Part shown: positions 5,975-41,077 of the stretch, in pieces
Numbering within the stretch: position 1 is the stretch's first letter
How the letters are laid out: every line of letters starts with the position of its first letter
Assembly: GCA_965644265.1 (NCBI GenBank)
Contig: OZ286473.1
Location: 66,526,001 to 66,590,000, forward strand
DNA: 64,000 bases
Direction of reading: 5' to 3'
From: Glycera tridactyla
Lineage: Eukaryota
Notes under the pieces: model-generated
Database searches by the model: none
The model's input: the letters and a program-made list of their open reading frames with translations, nothing else
Told to the model about the DNA's origin: nothing
Made by a program: the position numbers and the translations under genes

Positions 5975-8085
5975 GATAATTATCTTATCTTAAGTATGGA
6001 GGAGTATATCAAATACGGTGAAGAGACCATTAATAAGTGTCATTGAAATCGTGGGCAGGGAAGCCTATTCCAATCAATTTATAAATTTGACATGCCTGAT
6101 AACTTAAGCTAATATGATTACAAATATGGGCAGGATGATCAGAGAGCTAAGTGTGCTTAATGCCAGGTATTGTTGCCATCGGTTCCGATACCCGACATCT
6201 CACATCAAAATCTGAGTAAGCAGCTTATAACTGAGTATACGCTAGATAACAGTAAAAGTAATAGGAGCGCATACATAAACATACCATGCGTGTTGCCTCC
6301 GAAACCAGTATCAAATCAATCTAGTGGAACACCTCAGATGCTGTCTGACGCCAATATATCATCAAACATTGTATAACGGCTTTAACATAACTACATGAAC
6401 GCATTTCTAGCTAAATGGTAAATCAGTCCTCACACGCTATCAGACACACAAACACAAATTCTGAATTAACAAGATATAACAGAGGATATGCTAAATAGCC
6501 GTAAATGTAAGAGTAATGCATACATAGAGAAACCCTAGGTGATATGATTCCGAACTTTATAGGAATAGCACCCTCATCTAATGTGAAACTATATAGTCAG
6601 TCATCTTTGACCATGACATGCCATCTATTGGAGTACCTGGAGTAGTGCCAACCTCATCGGAGCGGATGATTCTAGTCGGAGTTTTCAAGTCGAGTAAAAG
6701 CACTGATGACTCTCCAAACTGAATATGTTTAGCACGAGAGGCCGTAGGTACTTCTCGATAAATGCAGCAAAGTATGGGGCTTTCTACTTTGACTACCACC
6801 AACTGGGGAAAACATAGTGTGATCAACATTCGGCCATTACGGGTATACTAGGCATATGGAAGCTGTGGCTGTATTTTTTAACCCCATGCTGACGTATCAG
6901 CAGTTATGCTAGCTATTGTGGTCGATGTGATTGTTTCGATGGTAATCACTCTCTTACACTTCTCTGAAAAAAAGAGGTGTTTCGAATTTGACAATGTACA
7001 TTGTGGTCATATCTAGGTGATCGATATCCCAAGCTGATCAATATCACACTCCTCACCATTTTTCATCATCAGATAGAAAGTACCTTTTTCAGCTACTGTT
7101 CGAAAGATTTACACTCTGAAAATACAGATCCCTATAATGTGACAGACATTAACTTATGGTCATAAAACCCCACATGACATCACGGATTATTCAAAGAGCA
7201 ATTTGCTCATGCTAATTTTCCGTGTAAATTGGCTGGTTATAAAGGCACTGTTATATCTCATCTCAGACATAAAGATGGCATTTCTGCGGACCAAAGCATG
7301 TCAATCAAAAGGACTTTATCATAATGAATTCAAAATGATGCATCTCATACTAGGGAGAGATAGTAAGAAGAGCCATGCATATGTCATATAGAGAGTATCT
7401 TCCTCGTCATGATCAACATTCTCCCAGCATATCGACGAAGTAGTCGAGTAAGAAATCCAGGAATAGCCGATCATGATGTGAGAGAAATTATCTCAATACC
7501 TCTCTAGCGCTATGTCTGGTAAAGACACTCTCCTAGATGTATCCATTTTCAGGAAATCATTGAAATGTCTCCTTGCTGGAAAGCTGGATAATATTGAAGT
7601 GTAATATGATTTTGATTCTTTTGTAAACGTGGGGATTGGATGGTAGTGATACTTGTGAAGTGATGCAATATAAAGGTTGTGATGGATGAACAAATGACAG
7701 AGATGGTCGCTCGCGTCGAATGAATGAATGAAATAGTTTTCTCAAGGCACTGTCTGTGGAAAGGAGAGGGAAATGCCTAAAAGACTTTTCTCAGCTGTGG
7801 TAAAGCTCTGAAACCTGATGTATAAGCAGACGTATCAAATTTGAACATTATCTTGCCCCGGAAAAGACCCGCGACACACCTAATCGCCTGTACTGGTCTC
7901 ATGTTCAATGGTCTATATCTCAGGGCGAGATATCCCAGTCAGCAGATACCAGGCAAAGCCCAGCTTGCTACAAGGGCAAAAGTCTATACAGAGGGATTAC
8001 CAGGGTCGCTTCTCTCAGATGGATGGTTACATGCAGTGGTTCTTCTCCCGAATGATAACCAACGAAGTGAGTTCCAGTCCAAGTC

Positions 8086-8091
8086 TTTATT
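8086..8091 (-). terminator. AATAAA polyadenylation signal in the 3' LTR (equivalent copy in the 5' LTR)
   Basis: tttatt on plus strand ~170 bp from the LTR 3' end. Confidence 0.6.
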
Positions 8092-8238
8092 CCCCGTAGA
8101 TACAGCATGAGATAGTATAAGATACAACTATTCAGCTGATGGGGAAGGTGGCGCAGTCCAGAGCATAACGTCCAACCACGTTCTATGCCTCTCAGATCTG
8201 TACTGCCCAACCAACCTTCGCCCATCTAACATATAGGT

Positions 8239-8269
8239 TCCATTGACGTCACCATTGACGTCAATGGAA
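8239..8269. promoter_or_regulatory. Tandem full CRE/ATF palindromes (TGACGTCA x2) in the LTR
   Basis: ttccaTTGACGTCAccaTTGACGTCAatggaa; TGACGTCA at 8244-8251 and 8256-8263, and at 22229-22236 and 22241-22248 in the other LTR. Confidence 0.6.
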
Positions 8270-8394
8270 TATTACATAGGATAATAACATACCGACATAG
8301 GATGGCAAGCGACATACGTTTACATACAGTAATTGCTCAGGCGTGGGCCCTTATGTCATAGGCCTAATGGAGTTCTTTCTTCTGACCGATTCTG

Positions 8395-8480
8395 GATCAA
8401 TACTAGGCGTACATGTTGACATCCAAGATGTAACCCAGATCAATACTAGGCGTACATGTTGACACTCAAGATGTAACCCA
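8395..8480. repeat. 43-bp tandem duplication inside the LTR (present in both LTRs)
   Basis: gatcaatactaggcgtacatgttgacatccaagatgtaaccca x2, second copy with two substitutions. Confidence 0.9.
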
Positions 8481-8688
8481 TCCAGTTCTGCCCCCGGTTG
8501 CTGGTTGCATAACAGCCACGGTCCCGGCAGCAGGAGTGAACAGGTAATGAAACACAAATAGTATTCCATCTCGAGTGCACCTGACGAATATTGTTGCACG
8601 AAAGGAATTTTTAACCCTCGTGCTGGTGATGAACATAGGATTTTGTGCCCAAAACGGTCCTTTCCTATATTTTTCGTTGAGATATACA

Positions 8689-8697
8689 TCTCTCCTC
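8689..8697 (-). other. Polypurine tract (GAGGAGAGA) abutting the 3' LTR
   Basis: Minus strand gctttttGAGGAGAGA|TGTATATCTCA. Confidence 0.7.
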
Positions 8698-11305
8698 AAA
8701 AAGCTTCGACCTCGTAGCTCTGCATTCCAACAATTTCAAAACGTTCCAGCCATCCAGCCACAATTGCCGGCCATAACCAGTCACATATGTTAGGTCCGAT
8801 TCACGTAGAATGGTCCAGGTAAAAGTGATGATATAATATATGACCGGTTAATCAGGCAAGCTGCATCCGGATGTCAAACGTAATCTACGATCCTCAACTA
8901 GAGACAATAATTTCGCATACCAAATGTAAGGGAAAGACCATTGGCCTATTCACAACAACCGAAACAATTTCCGCACCAAATCCTCGAATTTGCGGAACCA
9001 ACAGAACCGCTCACTGTCACGATTCAGGGATAAAATAATCGAGGGTGCTTTCGTTCACGTCCGTGCCCCGAAAAATCCGTGAGCCGAGACCGTGATTTTT
9101 GTTCGCACCTCGTCTCGCTCAAGCCCATTTTGTTCGGCCGAATCGACTCCAGCCGATCGATTCCTCAAGCCGGACCGTGAGAACTTTCTCGCAAATATTC
9201 CCACGGTCGCATGGAGACAGTTCTTCTAGCTATCATTTCATTGCAAATACTCGTGAGAACTTTTCTCGCTTCGCTCCCACGGTCGCATGGGTAGTCTTCA
9301 CACGACTCATCCAGTCGACCGCCGGCCGCGCTACGGAATCGCTCTTAACATATACGTGAGTGCACCGTTGTAGGTTATGAAAGACAACTACATTCGCATG
9401 GTACCTCACGAACATTATCGTATTTCTCCTCGATTCCGCGGAAACTCACGGAAACAAAAAAACCGGGTCGAATGCTCACGCCATACGTCGGTTAAAGTTG
9501 AGATATACATCTCTACAGATGCTAGGCATCACTATCATGGCCAAAAGCATGTAAATCACATCTACAATCCGATCGGCTACTCGAAATTCATATCAATGAT
9601 ATAGAAACACGGTTACCAACTGATTGGCAGTCACATTGGACCGCGCATCCGGCGAAAGCTCCATTCAATCGCAATACCAATATCGACACACTGAAACCGA
9701 CCGATATTGTTACCAAACCATGGACCGGGTTTTATAAAGGATAGGTGACGAGCGCCCAGAAGACACCCAAGCAGAATCTATAGGAAACGATAACAGGTCT
9801 CATAAAAGACTCAAGAAAGAGAGAGACAGAAGAGCGATAGAAGCAGAAGTCATATAGGAAAGGGAAACAGAGATATAAGAAGCAATATCGGTACAATCAA
9901 TACATCCATTACCACTATCCAAACACCTCCATACCAGCGTCCCTCTATGACGCAATCCATTTGCAGTCCATTACATCAATCCAAGCAGGCACACCAATCA
10001 CAACCACAAACAGCCACCCCGATGCAACCAATTAATGCAACAGTGCAGCCATTTCCGATTGCATCATAGAAAGCCCACCAGGCCCAATGCAAAGACCACA
10101 ATCTCCAGCCACGTCGCCAACCGGTGAACGATTTACACGAGAAATATCCCTGTACATCGTCTCTTGCATGATTCCTCGTGCCAAGTCACATTTACACCTG
10201 CTAGTCATGTGGAATGTAATATGAAGGAAAAACTCCCTATACATCGTCTTTTTATCATGCCATCGCATGACTTCACATGATCATGCGCTAACCGCATGAC
10301 ATGTACAGAATTCAAAATATCTTTGATTATCGTCCGAAGCTATATATTATCATGACCATCAATTTGATTACAACGTCTTGCATGATCAGAGTGTTCATAG
10401 CTCATCAGCCTCCAGGCTGGGTTCTCAACACACGCGAACACAACGATATGAGCAGCGTTATACATCGTCCAAGGTATTCACTCACGATTCCCTGATTACT
10501 AGTCTTTTCTCAGTCTAATCTAGAGTGAATACCTTCGCTGCATCCCATAAGATATATGAAGATAATCCATTATCCACAGATGATATCAAGATACACACAC
10601 CGATACGTCCATTTGCCGAGCCCAGAGACAACCAGTGTTTCCGTCAGGCCACCATCCCTGGAACTCAAGCAAATGAACATATCAGTTAATAACTGTACAA
10701 ATATCGATCCACATCCCCATGAACAATTGCAATACGATTATCGTCAATATCTTTCACACAAAACTCCTGTTTGATTATCAAGGTGTGGTTAAACAGACAC
10801 TCACTGAATATCTACGAATATAACGATAAATATAATTCCATTATATATGATTATATACACATCCAGATAGTATTGAAGTCAAAGGAGAAGAACTACCCAC
10901 ACATTCACCGATACATACATCACACCACATTGCAACAATTATAGGGATTGAAAATACAGCCACGGACTCTTTGATTGATTAACAACCAGGACCATGTAGG
11001 TAGTCCCTTCATGTCCCCGAATAACCCATTTTCCAAGAGCCCTGACACCACGATATCCTGTCCAAATTATGAGATATTCATACACACCACATTTAAATCC
11101 CATAATTCTAACCAGGGACACGGTATGGTAAATAAAAACAGATTCACAGGTTGGTTAAGCCTGCTTTCATCCACCATCCCAGCAACTCACTACAATCATT
11201 TCGTGGAAAGATAAAATCAACAGAACGCTAACAAGGAATATTCCTGGATGCCACCCAACACTATCGAGAGACCACCTAGCCATTTAAATCACAGAATATG
11301 GGCAT

Positions 11306-14300
11306 TTAAAATTCTGTGACTTCATCTTTTGGGTTCACCCTCCCATCACCGATTTTTGGCTTATTATTAGTGATACTAACATCAGGAGCAGAAGCGGTCA
11401 ATGGAGTGAGAACACTATTAATAGCATATTTGGGGGTTTGGTCCATAGCAGGATATAGTATCGTAGTGACTTGCTCCGGTGTGTAAATTCCTTTACACAC
11501 CCAACCATCACAATCTGGTTTACATATTTTCGGAATGACATAAAGCTTACCCCCCATCTCAATTTTAAAAGAAGCAGTGAAGCGACCCTGGAGGATGCGC
11601 TTCACTTTCAGAGCTTCCCAGGGTAGAAGTCTAAGTCGTTCCGGCATTGAGAAGGGAGCATTTCCCATCCTATTCCCGATGATTAGTCCCGACCATAGGA
11701 CTGTCAAGTAGGACCAACATTTATATTGTTTTACCTGATAAGGACCAGGTACACCCATGCCCATTAAATGGTAATTGGACATGGCTCCTGGTAATTTCAT
11801 TATCACAATATCCTGACATTCAACCATATTTCCCAGTTCCAAATAAAGCTTACAACGAGTTCTGAATCGGTGTGAATACAGGCGATACGCAAGCCAGCCT
11901 ACCATGACTAGTAGTGAGGCAATAATCAAGATGCCCATAACTATCAAAGCCAGGACATGCTGACCGCCCCAACAATGGTCTTTATCCGTAATATCTGTTA
12001 GAAATCTCCCGATCTGCGGAACCCTAGCACGAGGAGTAGTAACAGGTAAGTAACCCATTAATTTCTCGTACAGGTCATCGGGCAGTTTCTTCAACTCATT
12101 TGCAGACGTTGGTGGAAGGGTTCCCAGCATACTATAAGCCTGTATCGTCTGCTCGAGCAGACGATATGAACGTCTAGTGTATAAAGCCAATGCTAGGGAC
12201 ATAACAGCGATCGTCATGCCTACAAGTCCCAGAACATTAGAGAGGGTGAAGAATTCCTCACTGCTATCGAATGTCCAGGTGCTGGCTGCAACTTGCTTGA
12301 TAGGATCTACATCCAGACCTTCTTTTGCCTGCTTCATTACCGATGCCAGTCTCATTGAGTAGTCATAATCGCGGTTAATATTAACCGAAAAATCATCACT
12401 CACTTTGATCTTTGGAAGATAAGGTAGCCATTTTTCTTTATACATCGTTTCTCCTTTAATTACATCTATATCGTTCAGGTCATATACCAACGACAAGGCA
12501 GCTAGATTGATAGGATGGACCACGGTATACGTTGGTGATGAGGGCACACAATTATTTATACGAGGAGGTAAAGCTGCCGCTGAAATATCATTGGAGACAT
12601 GGATTGAACATCCACACTGCTAGTCTATTTGGCAGTATATGCACCCTTCTCGTTGTCTGGACAGTTCCTGGCCACATTGTTCCATAATAATTTTTGCATT
12701 ATGGACCAATATGTGTCCATTCCCAACGTCCACCAAGTCCACCACAGGGTCCATCCTTTCGAATCAAAATCCACACAATGTACGGACTTTATTTGATTCA
12801 TCCAAATAAATCGCAGCCATACATGAGGGTCGATCCATGTCGAATATTTTCAGCGCTGAGGTACACCAATAGGCAGTTGTATCTCCACATCGGGACAATT
12901 CTTTATGACTCATTTGAATATAGTTCCTACGATCGTCCGTCACACCGAAATATTCCACATCAGTTTTCAGCCTACTTATTTGTTCAGCATCGTCGGTAAT
13001 AGGCGTATTATGAATCGAAATTGAATATAATTTAAATTCGATAGTTAATGAGGACATAGGAAAGTCCAACGCCACTAACAGATGTTGATCGTTGGTCCGG
13101 AAATAATTGATCCGTCCAAAACGATAGTAATACTGTGGAGAGAGTTCAGTTAAATGAAAGTGGGGGTAGTCCAAACATAACTGAGTCTGTAAGGACAGAA
13201 TCGTATCCGTTAAAACGGTGTTATTTATTAAATAAGGACTTAGTTTTCCTTGAACTAAATCGTTAACCGCTGCCATCAAGTGGTCTATCTGAGGACTTAT
13301 GGACTGCAATTTTTCTATCATATTTGCTAGAACTGCACTGGACCTTACACTATGTTGCATAATTCTCCAGAGCCTATCATCCATGTGCTCAGACAGATCC
13401 TGCATTTGCTCCTGTATTTCGGCTTGCAACATAGATATCGTGCCTGCAACGTTGGTAAATCGTTGCGATACAACATCCATAAATGATGCCGTCTCTGTCC
13501 GAAATTTGGTGAAACGTGAAGTAACAACCCCTTGTTGTTCATTCACAAATTTCACCACTTCAGTCAACCTTTTCACATCAGAATTAGTTGCAAGTCCAAA
13601 TACATTCTTGCCTAGCCAGGCAAACAGATTCCACCGCCTAACTCTACTGCCTTCAATCACAGGTACATAAGTTTCGATTATTCCACACACTTCTTTCAAC
13701 CGTTTAGAAGTTTGGTCTACCAGGTCAGAATAATGACTATAAATGGACATTTGTCCTTTCAAAGTCAAAAGGATCTCCAGACGGTCAGATTCCGTGAAGT
13801 TCTCATTAACGTTAGGGTCGATTGTCATATTGGAATCAGTGTAATTCATATAAATGTCAACCTGATCCAATAGGTCACGCCTTTTTCTACCAGCTCGTCC
13901 TTGTAAATCGGTAAGGTTTCTACACCTGGAGTCTGGGCATTTCCGATACAATTGCTGGAAACACGCATTATTCCGATTTCCACAAGCCATTAGGGCAGAC
14001 CAACGTGTACAATCTTCCCTAGTGTATTCCTTTATCTTAGGACCAAGAGAAGGGATGATTAAGATATTGTTAGGGTTTTGATTAGTACAAGCAGCATAAG
14101 AGGTTACATATCTCTTGAATGACTCAGTATATCGACCCATAGCATTATCTTCCTCCAGCTCCTCATTCGTATCACGCCTTACCCTACCGTTCAAATCCGT
14201 AGAGTCACGTGAGGTAAGGTCCAAAATGGAATCACGAACATTATTCACATCTACCATCATCTGACTATGAAATTGAACCAAATAATTATCAAGGGAATGA

Positions 14301-14554
14301 GTTCCGGTGCATGATTGTTGTTCACATGAATCACCCATATCTTGAAACATTTGGCCTTTCATTTCTGGAGGTATTCGTATACGAAAGACATGTGTCCAGC
14401 TAGAAGCAGCCGGATGTAGTGTTTTCAATGGGTGAAAGCTCACTCCATAATTTGGTCGACCTACCGGGTCGAGGGTCGTTTCCGCAAAAGCAAGGAATTT
14501 GAACATATCGCATGCGGAAACCATCATCACTATTCCGACCCAGGACAGCGCCAT
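11306..14554 (-). CDS. env: Envelope glycoprotein, class I F-type fusion protein; one 1082-codon frame with two in-frame stops (12764-12766, 12620-12622)
   Basis: Signal peptide MALSWVGIVMMVSAC..., NYGV.F...W.H.F motif, furin site plus fusion peptide RVRR/WNLFAWLGKNVFGLATNSD (baculovirus F / errantivirus Env-type pattern), heptad region, Cys-rich region, TM. ORF pieces 12764-14629 and 11306-12547 are in the same frame. Confidence 0.85.
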
Positions 14555-15424: not shown

Positions 15425-18400
15425 CTACTGATTTAGCTGTTTTCTCAATGCGGTTTGTCTCCTAGTCATTGGGCCAGTTGAGCGCACCCGATCGAAACTC
15501 GTTGGTTTCCGAAGTCGATCAGCAGCTTTCGTGGCGTGGGTTCTATTATTTGTCCTGGCCGGATCTGCATATACCCTATCGTTGGTGGCTACAGGCAGCT
15601 CTTTCGAGATCTGTCTTAGCCTGCTATCGTCTTCAGCTAGGAATAACGATAGTTTATTACCATGGATCAGTGAGCCAAATGTCAAGTTTGTGCGCATGTC
15701 TTGCAGTTTAAATAATACCCCACCAAGAGTATCGATGATTCTATAAGGACCTAGTCTCTGATCATCAGTTTTTCCTACTGCTTGACCGGCAGGCCTGGAT
15801 GTTTTTAGCCAAACCTGATCTCCGATCTTGAAAGGCATCTTGCTCACGTGATATCATTTTTCATAGACCTCTTTATATCGTTTGGCAGCTCTTGAAATAT
15901 TCTCACGTGCCATCTCTCTATGATACGTGAGTTCTGGCAGTAAAACTTCTAAAATTTCCTGCTCTTTGAAGTTCAACAACTCGGGGTCTTTCACATGGCA
16001 ATATTCACCAACTTCGGTATCCACCCCAGTAGCCAAAAACGATGGTGAATACCCGGTCGTCTGTGAGGTAGAGGTATTCAAATTCAACCTCACGACTGGC
16101 AGATACCTAACCCACTCACGTGTTTTGCTGACTAATACCCTCATCATAGCCAAAATTGAACTATTCACCCTCTCAACCTTAGCGTTACTCTCTGGTCGGT
16201 GGCTACTGGTAAAAATACGTTTGTAGCCAAGCAATTTAGCCAATGTTTTCATCAGAATGCTCCTAAAGCTTTGGTGTCTATCTGTTGTCAATATGACGGG
16301 ACATCCATGTCTGCAGATCCACTCACGGAAAAAGGCTTTGGCTAGAGTCTCGGCCTTCTCGTTGGGAACAGCTACAAGCTCCACATATGATGAAAAAGAG
16401 TCAATCATTACTAACAATTTAGTATGACCTGTATTGGGATCAGCCGGCAACGATAACACGTCCATGTGTACGTGATACCAAATGGGAAATATTTGGCGGA
16501 GTTCTAATGGCGCTTTGTAAGAGTTATATGGTCTCTTACCTCGACCACACATTTCACAACTATGTACGTATGCTTTAATATCAGTAGCCATTTTAGGCCA
16601 ATAATACTTACTACGTACACTAACGAGAAGTTTCAATGCTCCGCGGTGACATCCCATTTGGCTATCGTGATGCACGTCTATCACGTGACCACGGAATTGT
16701 TTTGGTAGGCACAATTGCAGAAACTGTCCCTCTGTATGCCGTGATCCAGGCGTGTTGAATATACGATAAAGTATATCTTCGCCACCTAGGATATAGTGCT
16801 GATGATCCCTCAATACTAGTTTCATCTTCTCTGACTCTTTTGGTAGACTTCCAAACTTCAAGTAATGATACATTTCCTTAAAGTCCGGACTGTCTTGTTG
16901 CATGTCCCTCATTAACTGTGAATCTGCTCTGAATTGCTTTAATTGCTCCTCTAGCAATCTGGGTCCTAGAAATGCATGCGCTTCCTCATCAGGTATTCCT
17001 TTTCTAGTCCCTACGTCTACCACACCAGGGTCTCTCACCTGCTCCGCATGTTGCTTATTCATAGCTTCTTTAGTGACGGCATCAGGTTGACCTAAGTTAT
17101 GGCGTGATTCATTGGCTATATCGCTAATCGTCTTATACGATGGCATATCGCCACCCAGAGTCTTAACGAACATAACGATAGTTTCATCCAGTGGTACACC
17201 TATGTCCTTTGGTGAATAACCAAATTCAATGGACTGCTCTTCAGGAATGCGTGACAAAGCGTCTACTGCTTCTATGGATTTGCCAGGAGCATGTTTGATG
17301 TCTATGTTTGATCCTTGGATTTCTAAGGCCCACCTCAGCAATTTTGGGGCTGAGGAAGTCCTCAGATTCCTCAGATACCGTGCCGTGAGGTTATCTGTGG
17401 TGACATTAATCTTCTGTCTACCAAGAAGGTGTCTGTAAAGCCGAATGGACAGTATCAGACTGAAAGCCTCCTTGGAATTTATGTCCCACATGCGCTGTTG
17501 GGCGTTCAACTTCTTCGAGAAAAAGGCTATGGGTCTGAGAACATCGTTATCGTCTTTTTGGCTTAAGATGGATGATACGCTATGTTTAGATGCGTCTGTC
17601 GTGAGGTAGAATTCACGATCTAACCTGGGATAGTACAGGACTGCATTCTTCAAGAGTTCCTGCTTCAAAGTGTCCATCGATTTTTGGCACCTATCGTCCC
17701 AACAAAATCTCACGTCTTTGCGCGTGAGGTTAGTGATGGGCTCTGCTATCTCAGCATACTTTTTGACAAACTTCCTATAGTACCCTGTCAATCCTAACCA
17801 GCGTCTAACCTCAGTAACGTTAGTGGGTGTTGGAAAGTTCTGAATGGCTTTCACTTTCTCAGGATCTGGTTCCAACCCTTTCTCAGTCCAAATGTGTCCC
17901 AGGAATCGTAATCTTTTTCGAGCAAAATCACATTTCCTGGGATGAACCGTGAAACCATACTGCCTGAATTGGTTGAAAACCCTTGACAGATGCACAAGAT
18001 GTTCTTTGAAAGTTCTCGACGCCACAAACACGTCGTCCAAAAAGTTCCAAACAAAAGTCTGTCCAAGTCTGCTGAGTGCAGCACTCATAGCTCTACCATA
18101 AGTAAACGGTGCAAGACTTAGTCCGAAAGGCATGCGAAGAAATTTATAGCAGCCTTTCCCAGTAGTGAAAGTAGTGCAATCCTGACTACTCCTTTCCATA
18201 GATATCTGGTAGTACCCAGACAACATATCTAAGGAGGACATCCAACGTGGTGCCTGCCTTGCAATTGAATCATGCAAATCATCAAAGGTGGGCATTACAA
18301 AATACCCAGCATCTTTTTGTGTCATAGAATTTAGTGCACGATAGTCATTGCATGCACGATATATCACAGACCCATCTACAGCACGATTCTTCTTTTTGAC

Positions 18401-19663
18401 CATCACGACAGGTGATTGCCAAGGACTGTCTGATTCTACAATCACTTTAGCAACCAAAAGTTCCTGGATTTGTTTGTCTAAAGATTCCTGTTTTTTGGGA
18501 CTTAACTTATAAGGCCTTTGCCTCACGATTTTGGCATCTGGTTCCAACTTTATCTCGTGTTCAACACACGTGACCTTACCTAGTTGCGATGTAGAAGTAG
18601 CAAAAATATCACGATTATCGTCTAGCAATTCTATCATTTGTCTCTTCTGGTCTTTATTACAGTCTGATAGATCAAGAATTTCAGCCCACGGTATAGGTTC
18701 AAACGTACGATCACCTCTTAATTCCAATCCGAGGACATTTTCACGGAAAGCCTCAGTATTGAAGTAATTTGGGGGTACCGTTACGTTTGACTGTTGCTCC
18801 TGTGCTACGGAATTGATCAACGAGTATATCTCACCACCCACGTCGCCAAGTTCGATGACTTCAACATCATCATCGAGGGAAACTCGAGCCAATTTCGTGC
18901 CAGGCGGTAATTCTAGCGCATCTTGGCCGGAGTTGGCGAGCTTAACCCAGACCGATCCCGATTTCGTGACAGAAGCCAAGCAAGGGTCGAATTCTAAATT
19001 AACAGGTACACTCACATCGGCCAATGGTAACATGCAAACTTGTATAGTTTCTTCATCGACATTACCCGCCATATCAGGTGCAAAGAAGACATTTAGCCAA
19101 TGGTTATCTACTACTTGTAGTCTGGCAGAAATAAATGATTGTGGAGGAATCGTGATATGTTTCGTGTTAACGACATCGATCGCACGGTCAACTGAGAGGC
19201 TGGATAAGATAGTAGAGACCATAGGAGCATCCTCGAAGGAAACCACACCTTGCTCGAAATCGATTATGGCACGGTGGTTCTTTAGAAAATCAATACCCAA
19301 TATAAGTGAGACCGGCAAGCCCTCCGCTACCATCAGACTCACAGGCATCTCCCTGCCCGCAACTTCTAACGATATTTCAACCTGTCCGAGGATAGGTATT
19401 TGTTTACCGGAAGCGTCAGCCAATCTCAATGTTTTAGCATGATTTATAGGTAAAGCACCTTCGATGTTGTATTGCTCCCACTGATCTCTACTAATCAGAC
19501 TAGCAGAAGCGCCTGTGTCGACAAGCGCCTTTGCCACTATACCATTATGCCTTACTTTTATGAAGCTCCCATCAAGATTCAATGAAAAACTAGTATTTTC
19601 ATATTGAGCATATAGGATATTCGAAACACTGGTGAAACTACGTTGAGAGGTGAACTGTGACCT
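15425..19663 (-). CDS. pol: Pol: aspartic protease, degenerate dUTPase-like insert, RT, RNase H, integrase with GPY/F tail; one in-frame TGA at 15854-15856
   Basis: LVDTGAS; LDMLSGYYQI, MPFGL, FLDD; TTDAS; HHCC (HHDSQMGCH...CEMC); VHMD, TTD, VERVN; LGPYRII after the stop. Confidence 0.95.
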
Positions 19664-21388
19664 TCATTGTGTCATTTTGTTGTACCAACATGACTCTGTG
19701 GAATGTTGGTTTCCACATGTTTTACAGACAACATTCTTGTTCATATCAGGCCACTGTCGTTCCATGGCAGATCGCCTTTTCATACATTCTGCCATAAAAT
19801 GGCCATTTTCACCACAATAGAAGCATATCACACCTATCATTCCAGATACAGAGGAGGGGAGGGTTCCCGGAGTGCTTTGGTGACCATCAGTATTATACCT
19901 ATCTTTTTCTGGGCAACGAGGAGCATAATGTCCGATACGTTTACAATTATAGCACGTTACTGAAGCCATGTGCTGAAAGTTGGATGGTGATTTTGAATTG
20001 CCAGAATTTCCATTATTTCCAGAATTATTGCCACCACGGCCTCCACCACGTTTCTGGCCACGGCCTCTGGTGAACTCTCCGGAAAGTCCTACCGATCCGG
20101 AATTTTCCGGATTGTCTTTGGCCGTCATTACGTGAGAGGCTGAACCAGCTTGGGTAGCTGCCTGTTGAGTATTATGATTCGAAATCGACATATTGGCCAT
20201 TTGAGACGGAAAATTTACCATTACACCATCTTCATAGCCTTCTGCCATTTTTGCATCTCGAGCAGCAACAATAAGCTCTTGCAGGTCATTAGGGGCTCTG
20301 TTCAGAATCATTTTCCGAACAGCCTCTCTACATCCTCTCACTATGACAAACATCAACTGGCGTTCTTCAGAAGTATTAAAGTCAACTCCTGGTTCCTTAT
20401 TAAACACTCTCTTCCCTACACCAATTACTTTCCTCACAAATTCCTCAGTTTTATCAGTACCTTGCCTCAGAATATCCAATTCATGGAGTTGATCCCATGG
20501 TCTGGTACCTATTCCTCCAAATTCATCAAGGAATTTCTTTTTTAGGTCAACATTTTTGGCTTTAAGAGACTCGTACCAAATCGCTGCCTCATCACCCAAA
20601 ACCATAGGCATAACATCTTCATGTTTGAGCTCCTTAAATTTACAAAATTTGTCAAATTTAGACCACCAAACGTGGGCATAATTTTTAGGAGCTTCAAACA
20701 CAGGTAGTTTCATAATGCTCCCACCTTTGTCAAATTTGGCCAAGGCTTCCGCCAAGGCATCACCATCTTGTTTTGCCATGTTTCCGTCTTCTAACGGAGG
20801 GGTTGGACTTCGAGGAGGAGGGGTTCCTCCAGTTGAAGCAGGGGTACTTCTTCCCGAAGAAGGATCAGGATCTTTTGGATCAGCTGAATCCGCCTCTACC
20901 TCTTCCTCAAGGATCTCAAAGATTTCTTCTTCAACCTCCTCTTCCAACAATTCCTCTACCAAATTTTCGACACTTTCATCTATAAGCTCCTCTGTGGAAA
21001 CTTCAGCTACTTCCGGTGAACCCTCCAGTTAGGGAGGATAGAAGGGGTTATCAACAGAACTTTCAGCAACACTAAATTCAGAATCTGGATCCTCAGTTTC
21101 TTGAAAAAGTTGTCTAACCACACTATCTTCAACCTCTTCTGATACACCACCAGTATCTCCTACTTCTTTTGTAGGAATAGGAACTTCGGTTGCTAAAACT
21201 GCTTCTACGTATTTTGGCTTTCCAGCCCTTGTAGAAAGAGCTGGGGGTAATTTCTTTTCAGCCTGATCTCGTAGAGACTTTTCCTGAGGAGTTAAATATA
21301 CGTCAGGATGGTCGATAGGGAACCCAGACTTTTTGGACTTCTTTTTAGATTTATCTGAATCGGAATCCCCTGAGTCAGGATCGGACAT
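19664..21388 (-). CDS. gag: Gag with long acidic N-terminal extension and CCHC zinc knuckles; one in-frame TAA at 21029-21031
   Basis: CYNCKRIGHYAPRC, CFYCGENGHFMAEC and CKTCGNQHSTESC; ORF 21029-21388 is in frame with 19664-20962. Confidence 0.85.
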
Positions 21389-21898: not shown

Positions 21899-22667
21899 TA
21901 TATCTCAGGGCGAGATATCCCAGTCAGCAGATACCAGGCAAAGCCCAGCTTGCTACAAGGGCGAGAGTCTATACAGAGGGATTACCAGGGTCGCTTCTCT
22001 CAGATGGATGGTTACATGCAGTGGTTCTTCTCCCGAATGATGACCAACGAAGTGAGTTCCAGTCCAAGTCTTTATTCCCCGTAGATACAGCATGAGATAG
22101 TATAAGATACAACTATTCAGCTGATGGGGAAGGTGGCGCAGTCCAGAGCATAACGTCCAACCACGTTCTATGCCTCTCAGATCTGTACTGCCCAACCAAC
22201 CTTCGCCCATCTAACATATAGGTTCCATTGACGTCACCATTGACGTCAATGGAATATTACATAGGATAATAACATACCGACATAGGATGGCAAGCGACAT
22301 ACGTTTACATACAGTAATTGCTCAGGCGTGGGCCCTTATGTCATAGGCCTAATGGAGTTCTTTCTTCTGACCGATTCTGGATCAATACTAGGCGTACATG
22401 TTGACATCCAAGATGTAACCCAGATCAATACTAGGCGTACATGTTGACACTCAAGATGTAACCCATCCAGTTCTGCCCCCGGATGCTGGTTGCATAACAG
22501 CCACGGTCCCGGCGGCAGGAGTGAACAGGTAATGAAACACAAATAGTATTCCATCTCGAGTGCACCTGACGAATATTGTTGCACGAAAGGAATTTTTAAC
22601 CCTCGTGCTGGTGATGAACATAGGATTTTGTGCCCAAAACGGTCCTTTCCTATATTTTTCGTTGAGA
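21899..22667 (-). repeat. 5' LTR (769 bp); lacks the outer TGTATA seen on the 3' LTR
   Basis: Direct repeat of 7914-8682. Confidence 0.95.
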
Positions 22668-25700: not shown

Positions 25701-26413
25701 TTTGGACAATCGGTCCTGGTGCTCTTCCAACATCTATGAAGACTGTTGTATTTCTCGACTACCGTATCTGCCATGTGCAGGCATGACGACTGTCATGACC
25801 TTGGTTCTCATGTTCACAGCAAAAAAAAATGTATCTCAGCGACGCACATTGTGCGCTACGTCACAACATCACCAGATACGTGATGCACTCAGTGTAGCAG
25901 GCCTGCCACTATATACTTACTGAATCATTATTGATTTATCGATTTATCTACCTGTTTACTACTGTTCTTGATAGATATCCGACAGTCCTCTTCATCTATC
26001 ATTTTGCTTGTGCCATGGGATCTCTTCCTATGTATACTCACAATTGCTCATATCTGTGTACCGTATCGTTTTGTCTTATATCTCCTGCATCTCATTCAAA
26101 CTGGTGCTACTTCATGAGTTAATTCAAATGTTTGCATGAGCACCTAATGATGGTACTACAGGGTGACGTGTTAAACTTTATCTCTGTATATATGTTGCAT
26201 CTCATGCTATGAAGTTATTTCTGATCCTGATTCTCATTTCTGAACTGGTGTAATGCATACATTTCTTTTGATTGATGAACCAGTCAGTAAATGATTATAC
26301 AAGGAGATCACATAGACATATTGTCACATTCGTCACAGAACAAGAATAGTGATATCATTGATGAAGCAAATATGATAGGAGAGCAAAATATTCAATCAGG
26401 AAATGTAACTTAC

Positions 26414-26527
26414 CTGTTTCACAATGACTTCCTCCATACCCATCAGCACAAATACAGTTATATGAATTGACGCTGTCATCGCATGTTGCTCCATTCTCAC
26501 ATGGATTACTACTGCATTCATCAATAT
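26414..26527 (-). CDS. EGF exon, GT donor
   Basis: [38 protein letters not shown]; |GTAAGT. Confidence 0.9.
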
Positions 26528-27314
26528 CTGTAACAGGCAATATCAATAGAGAAGATGTCATGTGGATAAAAGCACATGCTACATCAAATTTATGGGTAGA
26601 TAGACAGAGTCTGAAAGGTACTGGTGATCATCATCTTCATGATGATAATCATCATCACCATTATCATCATCATCATCATCATCAACAATATCATCAGCAA
26701 TATTTTCATCGTCAGAGCACATCAGATTCCAAATCCCTGTGTGGAGATCAAGGCGTCATTGAAAAAATATAAACACATGTCCTTTCCTATGAGAATCACA
26801 GGAAGGAGGAATGTGATTAGGAATAATGAATGGACATTGCATTTGGGGAAATAATGCGATCATATCAGATATGATATATATCAGTTGTTTATGTACGTGT
26901 CCCTCTATATTCATCAGCGTATGTGCAATTGTGGCAATGAACAAGGTATATCAAGTTGACACCCCTTGCATGAATTATTGATGCAGTCACAAAATTCTGT
27001 GAATGGATGATCTCATGATAATTGTCGAAGAGAAAACATTGCCATTGTATGATAAGGAAATGGCAAGGATATATGAATGTTCGCTAAGCTATTCAAGGTC
27101 AGTGAGGGATAATACTGTGGTCAGTAAAGCTATGAACATCTTTTCTTGCTCACGAATGTATTTCATGGAACTTATATGTTAGAGGACATTGACACAGACC
27201 TATTTGAATAAGCACTTTCGGGCAGTCAATGCTAACACAGGGCCCATCTCAATTGTTGCCGACATTGAGTGTATTATTGGAGAGAAGCAGAGAGTATTTG
27301 AATATGTAACTTGC

Positions 27315-27428
27315 CTGTTTGGCAATGAGTTTCTTCAAATCCATCAGCACAAATACAGTTGTATGAATTGATGGTGTCATTGCATGTTGCCCCATTCTCA
27401 CATGGATTAGAAATGCACTCATCAATAT
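27315..27428 (-). CDS. EGF exon, GC donor
   Basis: [38 protein letters not shown]; |GCAAGT. Confidence 0.85.
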
Positions 27429-27730
27429 CTGTAACAAACAATATCGATATTGAAAATAAAAGCATAGAAATAACATCCTAAAGAGATCTATATGTAGATA
27501 GTGAGAATGGGTGAATTTTTCGGGTTCGTCATCATCTTCATCATCATAATCATTCATCATCATCATCATCATCATCATTAGCATCATTTTTGGCATCAGC
27601 ATCAGCATCAGCACCAGCATCAGAGAAAAAATTGACCTATTCTCAAGATAATAACGAAGAGAAGAGGGATATTGTTGAAGAGGGACAATTTATAGGAAAA
27701 CAGCTGATAGAATCCACAGATGTAGCTTGC

Positions 27731-27844
27731 CTGTTTCACAATGAGTCCCTTCATATCCATCAGTACATATGCAATAGTAGGAATTGACGCTGTCATTGCA
27801 AGTTGCTCCATTCTCACATGGATTACTACTGCACTCATCAATAT
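27731..27844 (-). CDS. EGF exon, GC donor
   Basis: [38 protein letters not shown]; |GCAAGC. Confidence 0.85.
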
Positions 27845-28113
27845 CTATAACAGACAATATCAATATGGAGAATGATATGAGGATGCAGATAACACTCCAC
27901 AAGGTGTAGGTGGATAGATCGGATAAGTAGATCCTAATTGCTACAAGGTTGAACAACTATACATTTTTTCTTCTTCATGAAAGTATCTCATGAAACTTAT
28001 AATGTTAGAGGTGATTGACACAAACCTATTCCAAAAAGCACTTTTCAGCAGTCAATGCTAACATGAAGTGAATTATTGGAGTGAAGCAGAAAGTATTTAC
28101 AAATGTGACTTGC

Positions 28114-28227
28114 CTGTTTCACAATGAGTTCCTTCATATCCATCAGCACATGAACAATCGTAGGAACTTATGGTGTCATTGCAAGTTGCCCCATTCTCAC
28201 ATGGATAACTACTACACTCATCGATAT
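28114..28227 (-). CDS. EGF exon, GC donor
   Basis: [38 protein letters not shown]; |GCAAGT. Confidence 0.85.
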
Positions 28228-28802
28228 CTGTAACAGACATCATCAATGTGGTCAATGTCATGGGGATGGAAATGACTTCCTACCAGAAAATATTGAATCA
28301 ATACAGAAATCGGATGGATTATCCTCCTCCTCCTCCTCCTCTTTCATCCTCCTGACTTCACCCCCTCCTCTTCATCATCATCATGGTACTGAATCAATAC
28401 AGAAATTGGGTGGAGTATCTTCATCCTCCTTCTCCTTTATCCTTCTGCTCCCTCCTCCTCCACCTCTTCCTGATCCTGCTTCTTCTCCTACTCATCATCA
28501 TGATACTTAATCAATACAGAAACTGGGTGGATTATCAACATCCTCCTTCTCCTTCATCGTTCTGCTTCCTTCTCGTTTGGCTCTTCCTTCTCATCCTGCT
28601 GCTCCTTCTCCTCCTCCTTCTCCTCCTCCTCCTTCTCCTCATTATCATTATCATCATCAACATCACCAGCACCATCATCAGCAGCAGCAGCGGCAGCAGC
28701 AGCAGCAGCATTATGTCATACACAGGGAATACATTGACCTATCCTCAAATTGATAAGAAAGAAGAGAGGAAATAACTGATAGTATTTGCAAATGTAACTT
28801 GC

Positions 28803-28916
28803 CTGTTTCACAATGAGTCCCTTCATATCCATCACCACATATGCAATCGTAGGAATTGACGCTGTCATTGCAAGTTGCTCCATTCTCACATGGATTACTA
28901 CTACACTCATCAATAT
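28803..28916 (-). CDS. EGF exon, GC donor
   Basis: [38 protein letters not shown]; |GCAAGT. Confidence 0.85.
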
Positions 28917-29035
28917 CTGAAACAGACAATAGCAATATCGAGAATATTATGAGGATGCAAATAACACTCAACAAGGTAGAGGTGGATAGAGCAGATAAAT
29001 AGATTATTAGGGATCGTAATCATCATCATCATCAT

Positions 29036-29066
<31 letters not shown>

Positions 29067-29644
29067 AGCACATGGTCAGAGCACCTGAGATTGTATATCT
29101 GTGTGGAGATCATGACATCATCAGAAAACAAGAACACTTGTTTTTTTCTCTGAGAATCACAGGGAGAAGGAATATGATTTCGAACAATGACTGCATATTA
29201 CGGAAATAGTGCAATTTCATCTCCTTTGAATATATCTTGCATGTTTCATTATGTATTTCTTCATGTCATATGGAATATGTGCAATTATAGAGATAAACAG
29301 GACATAGCTAGTTGCCTTTTCGTGCATGTATTGTCAATCTGATAACCATATTTTGTGACCCATTAATCTCAAGTTCATTGTATGAGGGACATCCTGCTTT
29401 TGTATGAAAAAGGAACAACGAGTATTCACGATAACTCTGACATTCAAGAGCAGGTGGGCATGATTCGATGGCCATACTGGCCAGATCAACCACCGATCAT
29501 AATCGTCATGAGATCGCAAGATTATTTTTCCATAGATTCAACAGCAATCAAATTACCATTTGTCATACAACGGGATGACATGGAACTTCTGAAGAGGAAG
29601 GATATATAGGAGAGCAGCATATGGTATTGGAAAATGTCACTTGC

Positions 29645-29758
29645 CTGTTTCACAATGACTTCCTTCAAATCCATCAGCACAAATACAATTGTATGAATTG
29701 ATGGTGTCATTGCATGTTGCTCCATCCTCACATGGATTACTACTGCATTCATCAATAT
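29645..29758 (-). CDS. EGF exon, GC donor
   Basis: [38 protein letters not shown]; |GCAAGT. Confidence 0.85.
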
Positions 29759-29830
29759 CTGTAACAGGCAATGACATTAATGGAGATGTCATTAGGATGA
29801 AAACACATGCTCCATCAAATTTATGAGTAG

Positions 29831-29907
29831 AAATACAATTGTATGAATTGATGGTGTCATCGCATGTTGCCCATTCTAACATGGATTATTACTGCACTCA
29901 TCAATAT
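29831..29907 (-). pseudogene. Truncated EGF pseudo-exon (acceptor intact, in-frame TAG, donor deleted)
   Basis: cag|ATATTGATGAGTGCAGTAATAATCCATGTTAG; 3' third of the exon is missing. Confidence 0.85.
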
Positions 29908-30604
29908 CTGTAACAGACAATATCGATAGGGAAGATGACATGAGGATAAAAGCACATGCTACATCAAATTTTTGAATAGATGGAGGGAGTTTGGAGTGTA
30001 TTTTTGATTATCACCTTCATAATGACAATCATCATCACCATTACCATCATCATCATAATCAAAATCATCATCGACAACAACTCCCTTTTTTGGCGTCATT
30101 GGAGAAATATGAACATGTCCTTCCAATGAGGATCGCAGAAATGAGAAATGTGATTAGGAATAATGAATGGACATTACATTTGAGAAAAATTATGTGATTA
30201 TATAAAATATGATATTTTTCGAGTGTTTACATATGTGTCCCTCAATATTCATCAGCATATATGCAATTGTGACAATGAACAAGGTATGCCAAGTTGTATC
30301 TCCTTGCATGGAGAATCGATGCAGTCACAAAATTCTGTGAATGAATGATCTCATGATAATTGTTGGAGAGACAACATAATCATTGTACAATCAGAAAATA
30401 ACCTGTATATACGAATGTTCGCAAAGATAGTCAAGGACAGTAGGGATGATAAGGTGGCTTTACTGACCACATGTGCTAATAATCCTCATTGTCATAAGAT
30501 TAAACAACTCAGCAGTCAATGCTAACATGGGGCCAATCACCATTGTTGCCGACGTTGAGTGAATTATTGGGGAGAACCAAAGAGTATTTGAATATGTGAC
30601 TTGC

Positions 30605-30718
30605 CTGTTTCACAATGAGTTCCTTCAAATCCATCTGCACAAATACAATCGTATGAATTGATGGTGTCATTGCATGTTGCTCCATTCTCACATGGATTAG
30701 AAATGCACTCATCAATAT
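30605..30718 (-). CDS. EGF exon, GC donor
   Basis: [38 protein letters not shown]; |GCAAGT. Confidence 0.85.
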
Positions 30719-30971
30719 CTGTAACAAACAGTATCGATATGAAAAATGTCCAAAGCGAGAAATTTATATGTAGATTGTGAGAATGTGTGAATTTTTCGGG
30801 TTTATCATCATCATCATGATCATCATCAGCATCAGCGTCAGCATCAGCATCAGGTTATATACAGAGAAAAAATTGACCTATTCTCAAGAAAAAGAGAGAG
30901 AGAAGAGAGATATTGTTCAAAAGCGACAGTTTATAGGAAAACAGCGGATCGAATCCACAAATGTAACCTGC

Positions 30972-31085
30972 CTGTTTCACAATGAGTCCCTTCATATCCT
31001 TCAGTACATGTGCAATAGTAGGAATTGACGCTGTCATTGCAAGTCGCTCCATTCTCACATGGATTACTACTGCACTCATCAATAT
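30972..31085 (-). CDS. EGF exon, GC donor
   Basis: [38 protein letters not shown]; |GCAGGT. Confidence 0.85.
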
Positions 31086-31354
31086 CTATAACAGACAATA
31101 TCGATATGGAGAATCATAGGAGGATGCAAATAACACTTCACAAGGTTTCGGTCGAAAGAGTGGATAAGTAGATTCTAATTGCTACAAGGTTGAACAACTA
31201 TACATTTTTTCTTCCTCACGAAAGTATCTCATGAAACTTATAATGTTAGAGGTGATTGACACAAACCTATTCCAAAAAGCACTTTTCAGCAGTCAATGCT
31301 GACATGAAGTGAATTATTGGAGTGAAGCAGAAAGTATTTACAAATGTGACTTGC

Positions 31355-31468
31355 CTGTTTCACAATGAGTTCCTTCATATCCATCAGCACATGAACAATT
31401 GTAGGAACTTATGGTGTCATTGCAAGTTGCCCCATTCTCACATGGATAACTACTACACTCATCAATAT
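31355..31468 (-). CDS. EGF exon, GC donor
   Basis: [38 protein letters not shown]; |GCAAGT. Confidence 0.85.
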
Positions 31469-32091
31469 CTGTAACAGACATCATCAATGTGGTCAATGTC
31501 ATGGGGATGAAAATGACTTGCTACCAGAGATTATTGAATCAGTACAGAAATCGGATGGATTATCCTCCTCCTCCTCCTCTTTCATCCTCCTGATTTCACC
31601 CCCTCCTGTTCATCATCATCGAGGTACTGAATCAATACAGAAATTGGGTGGAGTATCTTCATACTCCTTCTCCTTCATCCTTCTGCTCCCTCCTCCTCCA
31701 CCTCCTCCTGCTTCTGCTTCTTCTCCTACTCATCATCATGATACTCGATCAATACAGAAACTGGATGGATTATCAACATCCTTCTTCTCCTTCACCGTTC
31801 TGCTTTCTTCTCGTTTGGCTCTNNNNNNNNNNNNNNNNNNNNNNNNNNNNNNNNNNNNNNNNNNNNNNNNNNNNNNNNNNNNNNNNNNNNNNNNNNNNNN
31901 NNNNNNNNNNNNNNNNNNNNNNNNNNNNNNNNNNNNNNNNNNNNNNNNNNNNNNNNNNNNNNNNNNNNNNNNNNNNNNNNNNNNNNNATACATTGACCTA
32001 TCCTCAAATTGATTAGAAAGAAATGAGGGATATTGTCGAAGTGGAACATTTTTAGGGAAATTAACTGATAGTATTTGCAAATGTAACTTGC

Positions 32092-32205
32092 CTGTTTCAC
32101 AATGAGTCCCTTCATATCCATCACTACATATGCAATCGTAGGAATTGATGCTGTCATTGCAAGTTGCTCCATTCTCACACCGATTACTACTACACTCATC
32201 AATAT
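32092..32205 (-). CDS. EGF exon, GC donor
   Basis: [38 protein letters not shown]; |GCAAGT. Confidence 0.85.
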
Positions 32206-32895
32206 CTGAAACAGACAATAGTAATATCGTGAATATTATGAGGATGCGAATAACACTCAACAAGGTAGAGGTGGATAGAGCAGATAAATAGATTATTAGG
32301 GATCGTAATCATCATCATCATCATCAACAACAAAAACAACAACATCACATGGTCAGAGCACCTGAGATTGTATATCTGTGTGGAGATCATGACATCATTA
32401 GAGAACAAGAACACTTGTTTTTTTCTCTGAGAATCACAGAGAGAAGGAAAATGATTTCGAACAATGACTGCATATTACAGAAATAGTGCAATTTCATCTC
32501 CTTTGAATATATCTTGCATGTTTCATTATGTACTTCTTCATGTCCCATGATATATGTGCAATTATAGAGATAAACAAGACATAGCTAGTTGCCTTTTCCT
32601 GCATGGATTGTCCATCTGATAATCATTTTTTGTGACCCATTATTCTCAAGTTCATTGTATGAGGAACAACGAATTTTCACAATGAATCTGACATTCAAGA
32701 GCAGTTAGGCATGATTCGATGGCGATACTGGCCAGATCAGCCACGGATCATAATTGTCATGAGATCGCAAGATTATTTTTCCATAGATACAACAGCTATC
32801 GAATTACGATTTGTCATACACCGGGATGACATGGAACTTCTGAAGAGGGAGGATATATAGGAGAGCAGCACATGGTATTGGAAAATGTCACTTGC

Positions 32896-33009
32896 CTGTT
32901 TCACAAAGATTTCCTTCAAATCCATCAGCACAAATACAATTGTATGAATTGATGGTGTCATTGCATGTTGCTCCATTCTCACATGGATTACTACTGCATT
33001 CATCAATAT
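32896..33009 (-). CDS. EGF exon, GC donor
   Basis: [38 protein letters not shown]; |GCAAGT. Confidence 0.85.
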
Positions 33010-33081
33010 CTGTAACAGACAATGTCATCAATGGAGATATCATTAGGATGAAAACACATGCTCCATCAAATTTATGAGTAG

Positions 33082-33149
33082 AAATACAATTGTATGAATT
33101 CATGGTGTCATCACATTCTAACATGGATTACTACTGCACTCATCAATAT
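33082..33149 (-). pseudogene. Truncated EGF pseudo-exon, paralogue of 29831-29907
   Basis: Same TAG and same 3' truncation plus a further internal deletion. Confidence 0.85.
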
Positions 33150-33846
33150 CTGTAACAGACAATATTGATAGGGAAGATGACATGAGGATAAAAGCACATG
33201 CTACATCAAATTTTTGAATAGATGGAGAGAGTTTGGAGTGTATTTTTGATTATCACCTTCAAAATGACAATCATCATCACCATTACCATCATCATCATAA
33301 TCAAAATCATCATCAACAACAACTTCTTTTTTTGGCGTCATTGGAAAAATATGAACACATGTCCTTCCTATGAGAATCACAGAAATGAGAAATGTGATTA
33401 GGAATGGTGGATGGACATCACAAATGAGGAAATTATGTGATTATATCAAATATGATATTTTTCGAGTGTTTATATATGTGTCCCTCGATATTCATCAGCA
33501 TATGTGCAATTGTGACAATGAACAAGGTATACCAAGTTGTATCTCCTTGCATGGAGAATCGATGCAGTCACAAAATTCTGTGAATGAATGATCCCATGAT
33601 AATTGTTGGAGAGACAACATAATTATTGTACAATCAGAAAATAACCTGTATATACGAATGTTCGCAGATATTCAAGGTCAGTGAGGGATGATACGTTGGC
33701 TTTACTGACCACATGTGCTAATAATCCTCATTATCATGAGATTAAACAACTCAGCAGTCAATGCTAACATGGGGCCAATCACCATTGTTGCCGACGTTGA
33801 GTGAATTATTGGGGAGAACCAAATAGTATTTGAATATGTGACTTGC

Positions 33847-33960
33847 CTGTTTCACAATGAGTTCCTTCAAATCCATCAGCACAAATACAATTGTATGAAT
33901 TGATGGTGTCATTGCATGTTGCTCCATTCTCACATGGATTAGAAATACACTCATCAATAT
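33847..33960 (-). CDS. EGF exon, GC donor
   Basis: [38 protein letters not shown]; |GCAAGT. Confidence 0.85.
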
Positions 33961-34213
33961 CTGTAACGAACAATATCGATATGAAAAATGTCCTAAGTAA
34001 GAAATTTATATGTAGATTGTGAGAATGTGTGAATTTTTCGGGTTTATCATCATCATCATGATCATCATCAGCATCAGCGTCAGCATCAGCATTATGTCAT
34101 ACACAGAAAAAAAAAGACCTATTCTCAAGAAAATAAGTGAGAGAAGAGGGATATTGTTCGAAAGCTACAATTTATAGGAGAACAGTTGATCAAATCCACA
34201 AATGTAACTTTGC

Positions 34214-34327
34214 CTGTTTCACAATGAGTCCCTTCATATCCTTCAGTACATGTGCAAAAGTAGGAATTGACGCTGTCATTGCATGCTGCTCCATTCTCAC
34301 ATGGATTACTACTGCACTCATCAATAT
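34214..34327 (-). CDS. EGF exon, weak GC donor
   Basis: [38 protein letters not shown]; |GCAAAG. Confidence 0.7.
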
Positions 34328-40957: not shown

Positions 40958-41046
40958 CTGCAACAGTCAATATCAATATAAAAATTGTAATGAGGATGCA
41001 AATAATATTTATGAGGTGCAGAGAGCAAATTAGTAGATTATGAGGG

Positions 41047-41077
<31 letters not shown>

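Follow-up and report, generated by a model that had tools for sequence, protein, structure and literature searches.

Furin-type sites and constrained inserts between F2 and the fusion peptide in a clade of Env proteins related to a Ty3/gypsy element of Glycera tridactyla

The window analyzed here is a 64,000-nt stretch of the Glycera tridactyla genome (GCA_965644265.1, contig OZ286473.1, 66,526,001-66,590,000), and the coordinates below are positions within it. It contains a 14.7-kb LTR retrotransposon on the minus strand, which carries the env gene under study; all features of this element are on the same strand. The 5′ LTR (about 21899-22667) and the 3′ LTR (about 7914-8688) showed 5 mismatches in 761 aligned bases, and the first few bases of the 5′ LTR differ from the start of the 3′ LTR, which reads TGTATATCTC and is preceded by a purine-rich tract. 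The LTRs do not end in a clean TG...CA pair, nor was a target-site duplication recognized. The gag gene (19664-21388) encodes two zinc knuckles and has one premature stop (21031-21029). Its terminal TGA (19666-19664) is in frame with pol and may reflect read-through or decay. The pol gene (15425-19663) has the order PR-RT-RH-IN and a premature stop near its end (15856-15854). The assignment to Ty3/gypsy was based on this domain order; with gag, pol and env lying between LTRs, the element has the composition of a Ty3/gypsy errantivirus. It is young but broken. In five out of five other env families checked, pol was also located upstream of env. A 2.6-kb segment (8689-11305) without any ORF of 100 aa separates env from the 3′ LTR.

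Three copies of the window's own family were found in the genome and every env among them is broken; many other families have numerous open and nearly identical copies. By our clustering, the genome has at least 21 env-bearing families, including single-site ones. Elsewhere in the window, a 155-nt unit recurs about 27 times amid (CAT)n microsatellites at 26300-43200 and 61900-63500, mostly at spacings of 300-1,300 nt. By eye, these units look like short exons that encode Cys residues of a repeat protein, for instance an EGF array. Two further segments (46511-48823 and 57479-60303) hold gag-like, RT and recombinase-like fragments of what we take by eye to be a DIRS-like element. It is presumably interrupted by a LINE (48981-57281), judged likewise by eye, with an ORF1, an esterase-like ORF and an endonuclease-RT ORF.

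The env gene (11306-14554, ATG at 14554) encodes an F-type class I fusion protein of 1082 aa when read through two premature stops, at 12766-12764 (aa597) and 12622-12620 (aa645). This copy would not yield an anchored Env, and we infer the mechanism proposed below for its families. A likely signal peptide (aa1-24, 14483-14554) was suggested by hydropathy. It is followed by the F2 core (14174-14482), which consists of a NYGVSF strand, a C77-x4-C82 pair and the F2 helix (aa87-115), and which terminates at furin-type site 1. This core scored 11 bits against a profile of single-site F2 (0/100 shuffles). Site 1 is RVRR followed by DT (14174-14185, aa124-127), site 2 is (RAG)RKRR followed by DL (13877-13888, aa223-226), and site 3, the ancestral activation site, is RVRR followed by WN (13634-13645, aa304-307). 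No other strict R-x-[KR]-R motif occurs in the 1082-aa read-through. Only site 3 is directly followed by a hydrophobic sequence, WNLFAWLGKNVFG, and the fusion peptide WNLFAWLGKNVFGLA... (13580-13633) aligned with the fusion peptides of relatives. The first-pass annotation had described three such sites with only the third preceding a fusion peptide, and this description was correct. At least three strict motifs occurred by chance in 57 out of 20,000 shuffles of the 758-aa ectodomain. Hydropathy predicted two transmembrane helices (12176-12256 and 11873-11977). Thus, a furin-type site, a hydrophobic fusion peptide, a signal peptide and an anchor were all found, with two predicted anchors rather than one. 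Beyond the two predicted membrane helices, Env continues with a conserved domain of about 190 aa (12256-11306 for helices and domain together), and the alignment shows this tail in single-site relatives too.

The fold of the ectodomain is that of an F protein. Env matched Pfam Baculo_F at aa380-594 (E = 3.5e-9, 36.3 bits against a cut-off of 24.1). An AlphaFold2 model of aa27-755, in which the two stops were entered as X and which drew on an alignment of 105 rows, had a mean pLDDT of 77. Pneumovirus and paramyxovirus F proteins came out on top in both Foldseek and VIA; the best matches of the model were RSV and metapneumovirus F (Foldseek E = 2.5e-7; VIA Z = 10.7, rmsd 4.9, 315 aligned residues). 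At the sequence level, a PDB search with env gave nothing below E = 0.1, and a homologue search with the 596-aa env frame gave 6,443 candidates, none of them at E = 0.001. In the ESM Atlas, Baculo_F clusters scored 0.82-0.84 for aa27-356, which we treat only as a lead. In a viral library, the best fold matches of the model ranked ahead of baculovirus F. They were glycoproteins of 1000-1230 aa from chu-like and related arthropod RNA viruses, and an abalone herpesvirus protein of 801 aa (E = 9e-20). These proteins may share the long architecture or may reflect gene exchange.

The three sites delimit two pieces between F2 and the fusion peptide. Piece 1 (13877-14173) is 99 aa long, ends with site 2 and is predicted to form a small helical domain. 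Its six Cys, spaced 25-8-6-7-4, are as annotated earlier; one sequon, NLT (aa213), had been overlooked. Piece 2 (13634-13876) has 81 aa and ends with site 3. It comprises a variable acidic N-terminal part and a predicted 42-residue helix (about 13792-13667). Its three sequons (NYT, NMT and NFT) are indeed present in the window copy. However, the proposal that piece 2 is a dedicated glycopeptide was not supported, as the seven families of the window's subclade have 3, 1, 0, 1, 1, 1 and 1 sequons in piece 2 and 0-7 in piece 1. Piece 2 has a single Cys (aa290), which is private to the window copy: neither the family's other in-frame copy nor any of the six sister families has it. In the AlphaFold2 model, piece 1 formed several short helices, with pLDDT of about 55-80 in context and 56 alone, and piece 2 formed one 42-residue helix; the fusion-peptide region was below 50.

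We did not find a known domain that matches piece 1. ShK domains, defensins and hairpinins are types of Cys-rich peptide families. A likeness of piece 1 to the ShK domain, noticed by eye, was dropped for want of support from Pfam. No Pfam match above the cut-off was found in piece 1 of the seven families. LEAP-2 was the best Pfam candidate, at E = 0.003 in one family only, and was rejected as falling below the cut-off. The ESM Atlas gave no usable match for piece 1. In the fold search, whose query was the pLDDT-56 model, none of 48,161 chains reached Z ≥ 5 (best VIA Z = 4.6).

To place these sites among related proteins, we used a HMMER scan of representatives. From its 832 relatives we took the best 150, which together with the genome loci were clustered into 145 groups; the 109 groups with a recognizable N-terminal motif were used and 36 were left out. 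Among the 80 short Envs (less than 135 residues from the N-terminal motif to the fusion peptide), four had an extra strict site. Extra strict sites were present in all 29 long Envs (144-408 residues), 19 of which came from this genome and ten from other records. In trees built from F1 alone, the 29 long Envs formed one side of a single branch, with a support of 95 in FastTree (109 rows) and 99/96 in IQ-TREE (LG+G4, 53 rows); these trees were unrooted, without an outgroup, and their sampling was centered on the query. Therefore, the insert is not a quirk of one lineage, as had been considered earlier. On sequence evidence, the architecture of two to about five sites is clade-wide rather than specific to the window. 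The most elaborate member seen is an env family of about 1,190 aa with at least 22 loci (for example, L107:1300-4878 on the minus strand and L128:106-3693), in which the region ahead of the fusion peptide contains ten Cys and furin motifs in four to five clusters.

The distribution and flanks of the motifs in the long Envs were also surveyed. We counted 46 strict motifs in the 7,322 residues before the fusion peptide versus one in 11,163 residues of F1. The residue after the upstream motifs was D, S or E in 36 out of 46 cases, and these residues after the cut agree with the preference of furin. At the fusion-peptide sites, a small residue (G or N) followed the cut in 17 out of 26.

It had been left open whether the insert might be a normal part of F2. 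This was not the case: a profile of the F2 helix, built from 69 single-site relatives, matched the segment ahead of the first site in 26 out of 29 long Envs. The insert therefore starts right behind a normal F2 and is cut off rather than kept on it. The three exceptions are L078, where a non-strict RRRPTR follows the F2 helix, L128, which has about 85 extra residues ahead of its first strict site, and P0019, for which our cutting rule gave no clean segments. The last piece, which corresponds to piece 2 of the window, is common to all 29 long Envs and is 47-91 aa long in nearly all of them (mis-cut tails set aside). An alignment that seemed to place the Cys of single-site F2 on piece 1 was left out of the analysis.

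The pieces seem to differ in origin. Last pieces weakly resemble the end of the F2 helix, at two or fewer of 100 shuffles in six out of 29. An hhalign comparison of all last pieces with the F2 helix gave 36%, driven partly by the furin motif. In the window, piece 2 scored 5.6 bits against the F2-helix profile (0/100 shuffles). The amphipathicity of the last helix exceeded that of shuffles in only 13 out of 29 Envs; the window was not among them (35/300). The case for duplication of the F2 helix as the source of piece 2 is weak. In the subclade of P0025, a clear F2-helix copy forms the end of the middle piece (0-1/100 shuffles in seven of the nine three-piece members). In the window's subclade, the middle piece is the Cys-rich domain, and F2-helix likeness was seen in none of the seven families. 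An origin of piece 1 as a duplicate of F2 was rejected, since its F2-profile score lay at 23-90 out of 100 shuffles. The suggestion of an internal duplication, which rested on an apparent repetition of a C-x4-C, helix and furin-site pattern, is likewise abandoned for the six-Cys piece: the C-x4-C lies 42 residues before the furin motif in one instance and 12 in the other, so this is not a true repeat, and hhalign gave a probability of 1.6%. Piece 1 probably joined an Env that already had two sites, because the two-site sisters P0001 and L078 adjoin the window's subclade.

Conservation of the sites and of the pieces was examined in sister families. A genome search with aa55-360 of the window Env scored 129 out of 2,283 candidates. 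Four rows had 94-100% identity (three copies, one of them split by a frameshift) and 125 rows had 38-42%; from the latter, 28 loci of family B and 10 loci of family C were examined. Further env families were obtained from genome searches with P0025, P0001, P0019, P0008 and P0009. The window's subclade comprises seven families, all of which have three furin-type sites. The strict motif was present in 24 of the 25 in-frame copies of family B at each of the three sites (25 of its 28 loci being in frame), and in all ten copies of family C. Mean pairwise identities among the seven families were 48% for F2, 24% for piece 1, 23% for piece 2 and 65% for F1. Piece 1 ranged from 63 to 118 aa, with six Cys in six families and four in one, and had no conserved residues apart from Cys across the seven families; piece 2 had 0-3 sequons.

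We computed dN/dS within families, as synonymous sites were saturated between families. In family B, dN/dS was 0.05 for F2, piece 1 and piece 2 alike (295 of 300 pairs, from diverged copies; the pairs are non-independent). The values for family C were 0.05, 0.10 and 0.08, respectively (39 of 45 pairs, also non-independent). A third family, under weaker selection, had 0.20, 0.32 and 0.61 (11 of 21 pairs, again non-independent). Judged from these ratios, both inserts are under purifying selection in families B and C. At 0.05-0.10, they do not seem to be loose linkers. The additional sites are conserved and selected: there are three sites in seven out of seven families, and low ratios for both pieces in two.

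Similar designs are found in known viral proteins. Chary and Hayashi (eLife 2026, PMC13524379) described F-type Envs of metazoan Ty3/gypsy errantiviruses with one conserved furin site. The element in the window resembles these errantiviruses in having gag-pol-env between LTRs, a Baculo_F match, an F fold and a furin site before a hydrophobic fusion peptide; unlike them, its lineage has two to about five sites and constrained inserts. In the main text of that survey, the word "furin" occurs three times and "p27" does not occur, and seven text supplements have neither "furin" nor "cleavage"; its alignment figures, which lie outside a word search, might show extra sites. Passages of PMC5408684 and PMC6784293 contained nothing on multiple sites in retrotransposon Env. 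More generally, no report of a multi-furin retrotransposon Env was found in the literature searched, whose coverage left out most subscription journals.

According to PMC11468914, RSV F stands alone among its relatives in having two consecutive furin sites, and removal of p27 is required for trimer assembly. RSV F is described as cleaved in two stages, with p27 kept on F1 until entry (PMC3623752, PMC10320223), and there is continuing debate about what p27 does (PMC10320223). The analogy with RSV drawn earlier is apt: both are class I F folds with an insert between F2 and the fusion peptide and a furin consensus at both ends. However, p27 is a single flexible peptide of 27 aa, whereas the insert of the window consists of two pieces, 180 aa together, that include predicted helices and six Cys. 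It does not look like a short, flexible and variable peptide, given pieces of 99 and 81 aa and a dN/dS of 0.05-0.10. In RSV, F2 is disulfide-linked to F1, whereas F2 of the window has only the C-x4-C pair. RSV F has one anchor and a short tail; the window Env has two predicted membrane helices and a tail of about 190 aa. As the identity is about 12%, the two designs are probably convergent. At most, the insert works like p27; it is not a p27 homologue.

Foamy virus Env offers a second parallel. Its F-like scaffold, too, is interrupted by a folded domain, which lies between helix HRC and the activation site. This receptor-binding domain (RBD) has about 330 aa and stays covalently on SU (PMC11468914), whereas the insert of the window is bracketed and subdivided by furin-type sites. 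By its sequence, the insert would not be kept on the N-terminal subunit, as a conserved furin motif separates it from F2. Neither a sequence match nor a fold match was found between the insert and the foamy RBD. The third parallel is virokinin, a tachykinin-family peptide released from between two furin sites of bovine RSV F (PMC7552771). Its position within an F protein is similar, although no tachykinin motif was recognized in the window Env.

Which function best explains these inserts? We think it about evenly balanced whether the insert is a pro-region like RSV p27, but folded, which is excised in stages and locks the fusion protein until maturation. In the folded precursor, the insert would occupy the position of p27 in RSV and of the RBD in foamy virus. 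Sites 1 and 2, with D, S or E after the cut, would be cleaved early in the secretory pathway, freeing the Cys-rich piece 1, whose even number of Cys suggests internal disulfides only. Piece 2, bearing the helix and common to the clade, would remain on F1 and cap the fusion peptide. Site 3, with a bulky Trp after it, would be cut last, which would arm the fusion protein. This order of cuts was deduced from the motif flanks, and the argument for a late cut applies mainly to the Trp subclade because G or N follows 17 of the 26 fusion-peptide sites. The sites, their conservation, their clade-wide spread, the position of the insert and the selection on it are observations. In almost all long Envs a furin-type site sits directly behind F2, and there is no evident Cys tether, so it seems that the insert must be removable. 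As it is as constrained as F2 within two families, it would also have to act structurally before or after the cut. Of the three roles suggested in the first-pass annotation (immune modulator, receptor-binding cap and fusion clamp), the clamp fits best, more so for piece 2 than for piece 1. Against the staged reading stand the modest confidence of the model, the last helix whose amphipathicity beats shuffles in a minority of Envs, and the weaker selection in the third family. In addition, families diverge fast, and this, with the up to seven sequons of piece 1, would fit an exposed, host-facing domain equally well.

Such a host-facing role is the core of the main rival, which we regard as a tentative possibility: the pieces might be cut and yet retained non-covalently as subunits, with piece 1 acting as a variable receptor-binding or host-range cap like the foamy RBD. 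We treat it as the main rival because the foamy RBD sits at the same spot, between helix HRC and the furin site (PMC11468914). Piece 1 also has the variation expected of a cap, being constrained within families (dN/dS 0.05-0.10) and yet only 24% identical between them, with the ranges of length and sequons given above, and no separate attachment gene was seen in the element. On the other hand, the cut right after the F2 helix occurs in nearly every long Env, and the even Cys count of piece 1 leaves no covalent tether evident, unlike in the foamy RBD. Moreover, piece 1 is lacking in the two-site relatives and in the 80 short ones, so an Env of this kind can do without it.

In our estimation, it is unlikely that piece 1 acts as a bioactive peptide, secreted in disulfide-bonded form and with a host target of its own, as virokinin is for bovine RSV (PMC7552771). 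The cuts conserved on both of its sides in seven out of seven families, the six-Cys frame in six of them and the purifying selection are what such a peptide would have. One family lacks the apparent Cys 3 and 4 together, as would be expected of a self-contained disulfide pair; the predicted disulfides would accordingly be nested as 1-6, 2-5 and 3-4. However, residues other than Cys are not conserved across the seven families, and no match found suggests a target or an activity. Furthermore, in the other three-site subclade the slot of piece 1 is occupied by an F2-helix copy, which points to a structural origin. The same copies, found in seven of the nine three-piece members of the P0025 subclade, would be accounted for if the extra sites were redundant by-products of helix-plus-site duplications and the pieces were spacers that let the precursor fold and be cut somewhere. 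The last pieces that match the F2-helix profile (six out of 29) and the wide variation in the number and length of pieces agree with this, but we consider it quite improbable. The dN/dS of the pieces is as low as that of F2 in two families; the sites are kept where their flanks are not, the flanks are furin-like, and the motifs are nearly absent from F1. Piece 1 of the window's subclade is also no duplicate, by the shuffles described above.

The staged, folded pro-region remains our preferred reading. Here, 29 Env families lie on one branch, 19 of them in one genome; their inserts are kept, the number of modules differs among them and selection can be measured. This series lets one compare why a class I fusogen carries an excisable insert: as a lock, for receptor binding or as a free peptide. 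The multi-site feature is also an addition to the recent survey of metazoan errantiviruses, the text of which does not mention it (PMC13524379). More speculatively, and with some doubt, the F2/F1 junction in this old clade might be a polyprotein cassette, to which modules with their own furin cuts (two, three or up to about five) have been added repeatedly, at least one of them, the six-Cys domain, being a new small fold that is secreted and either determines host range or, once released, acts on host cells. If this were true, RSV p27 would be one case of a general and evolvable design.
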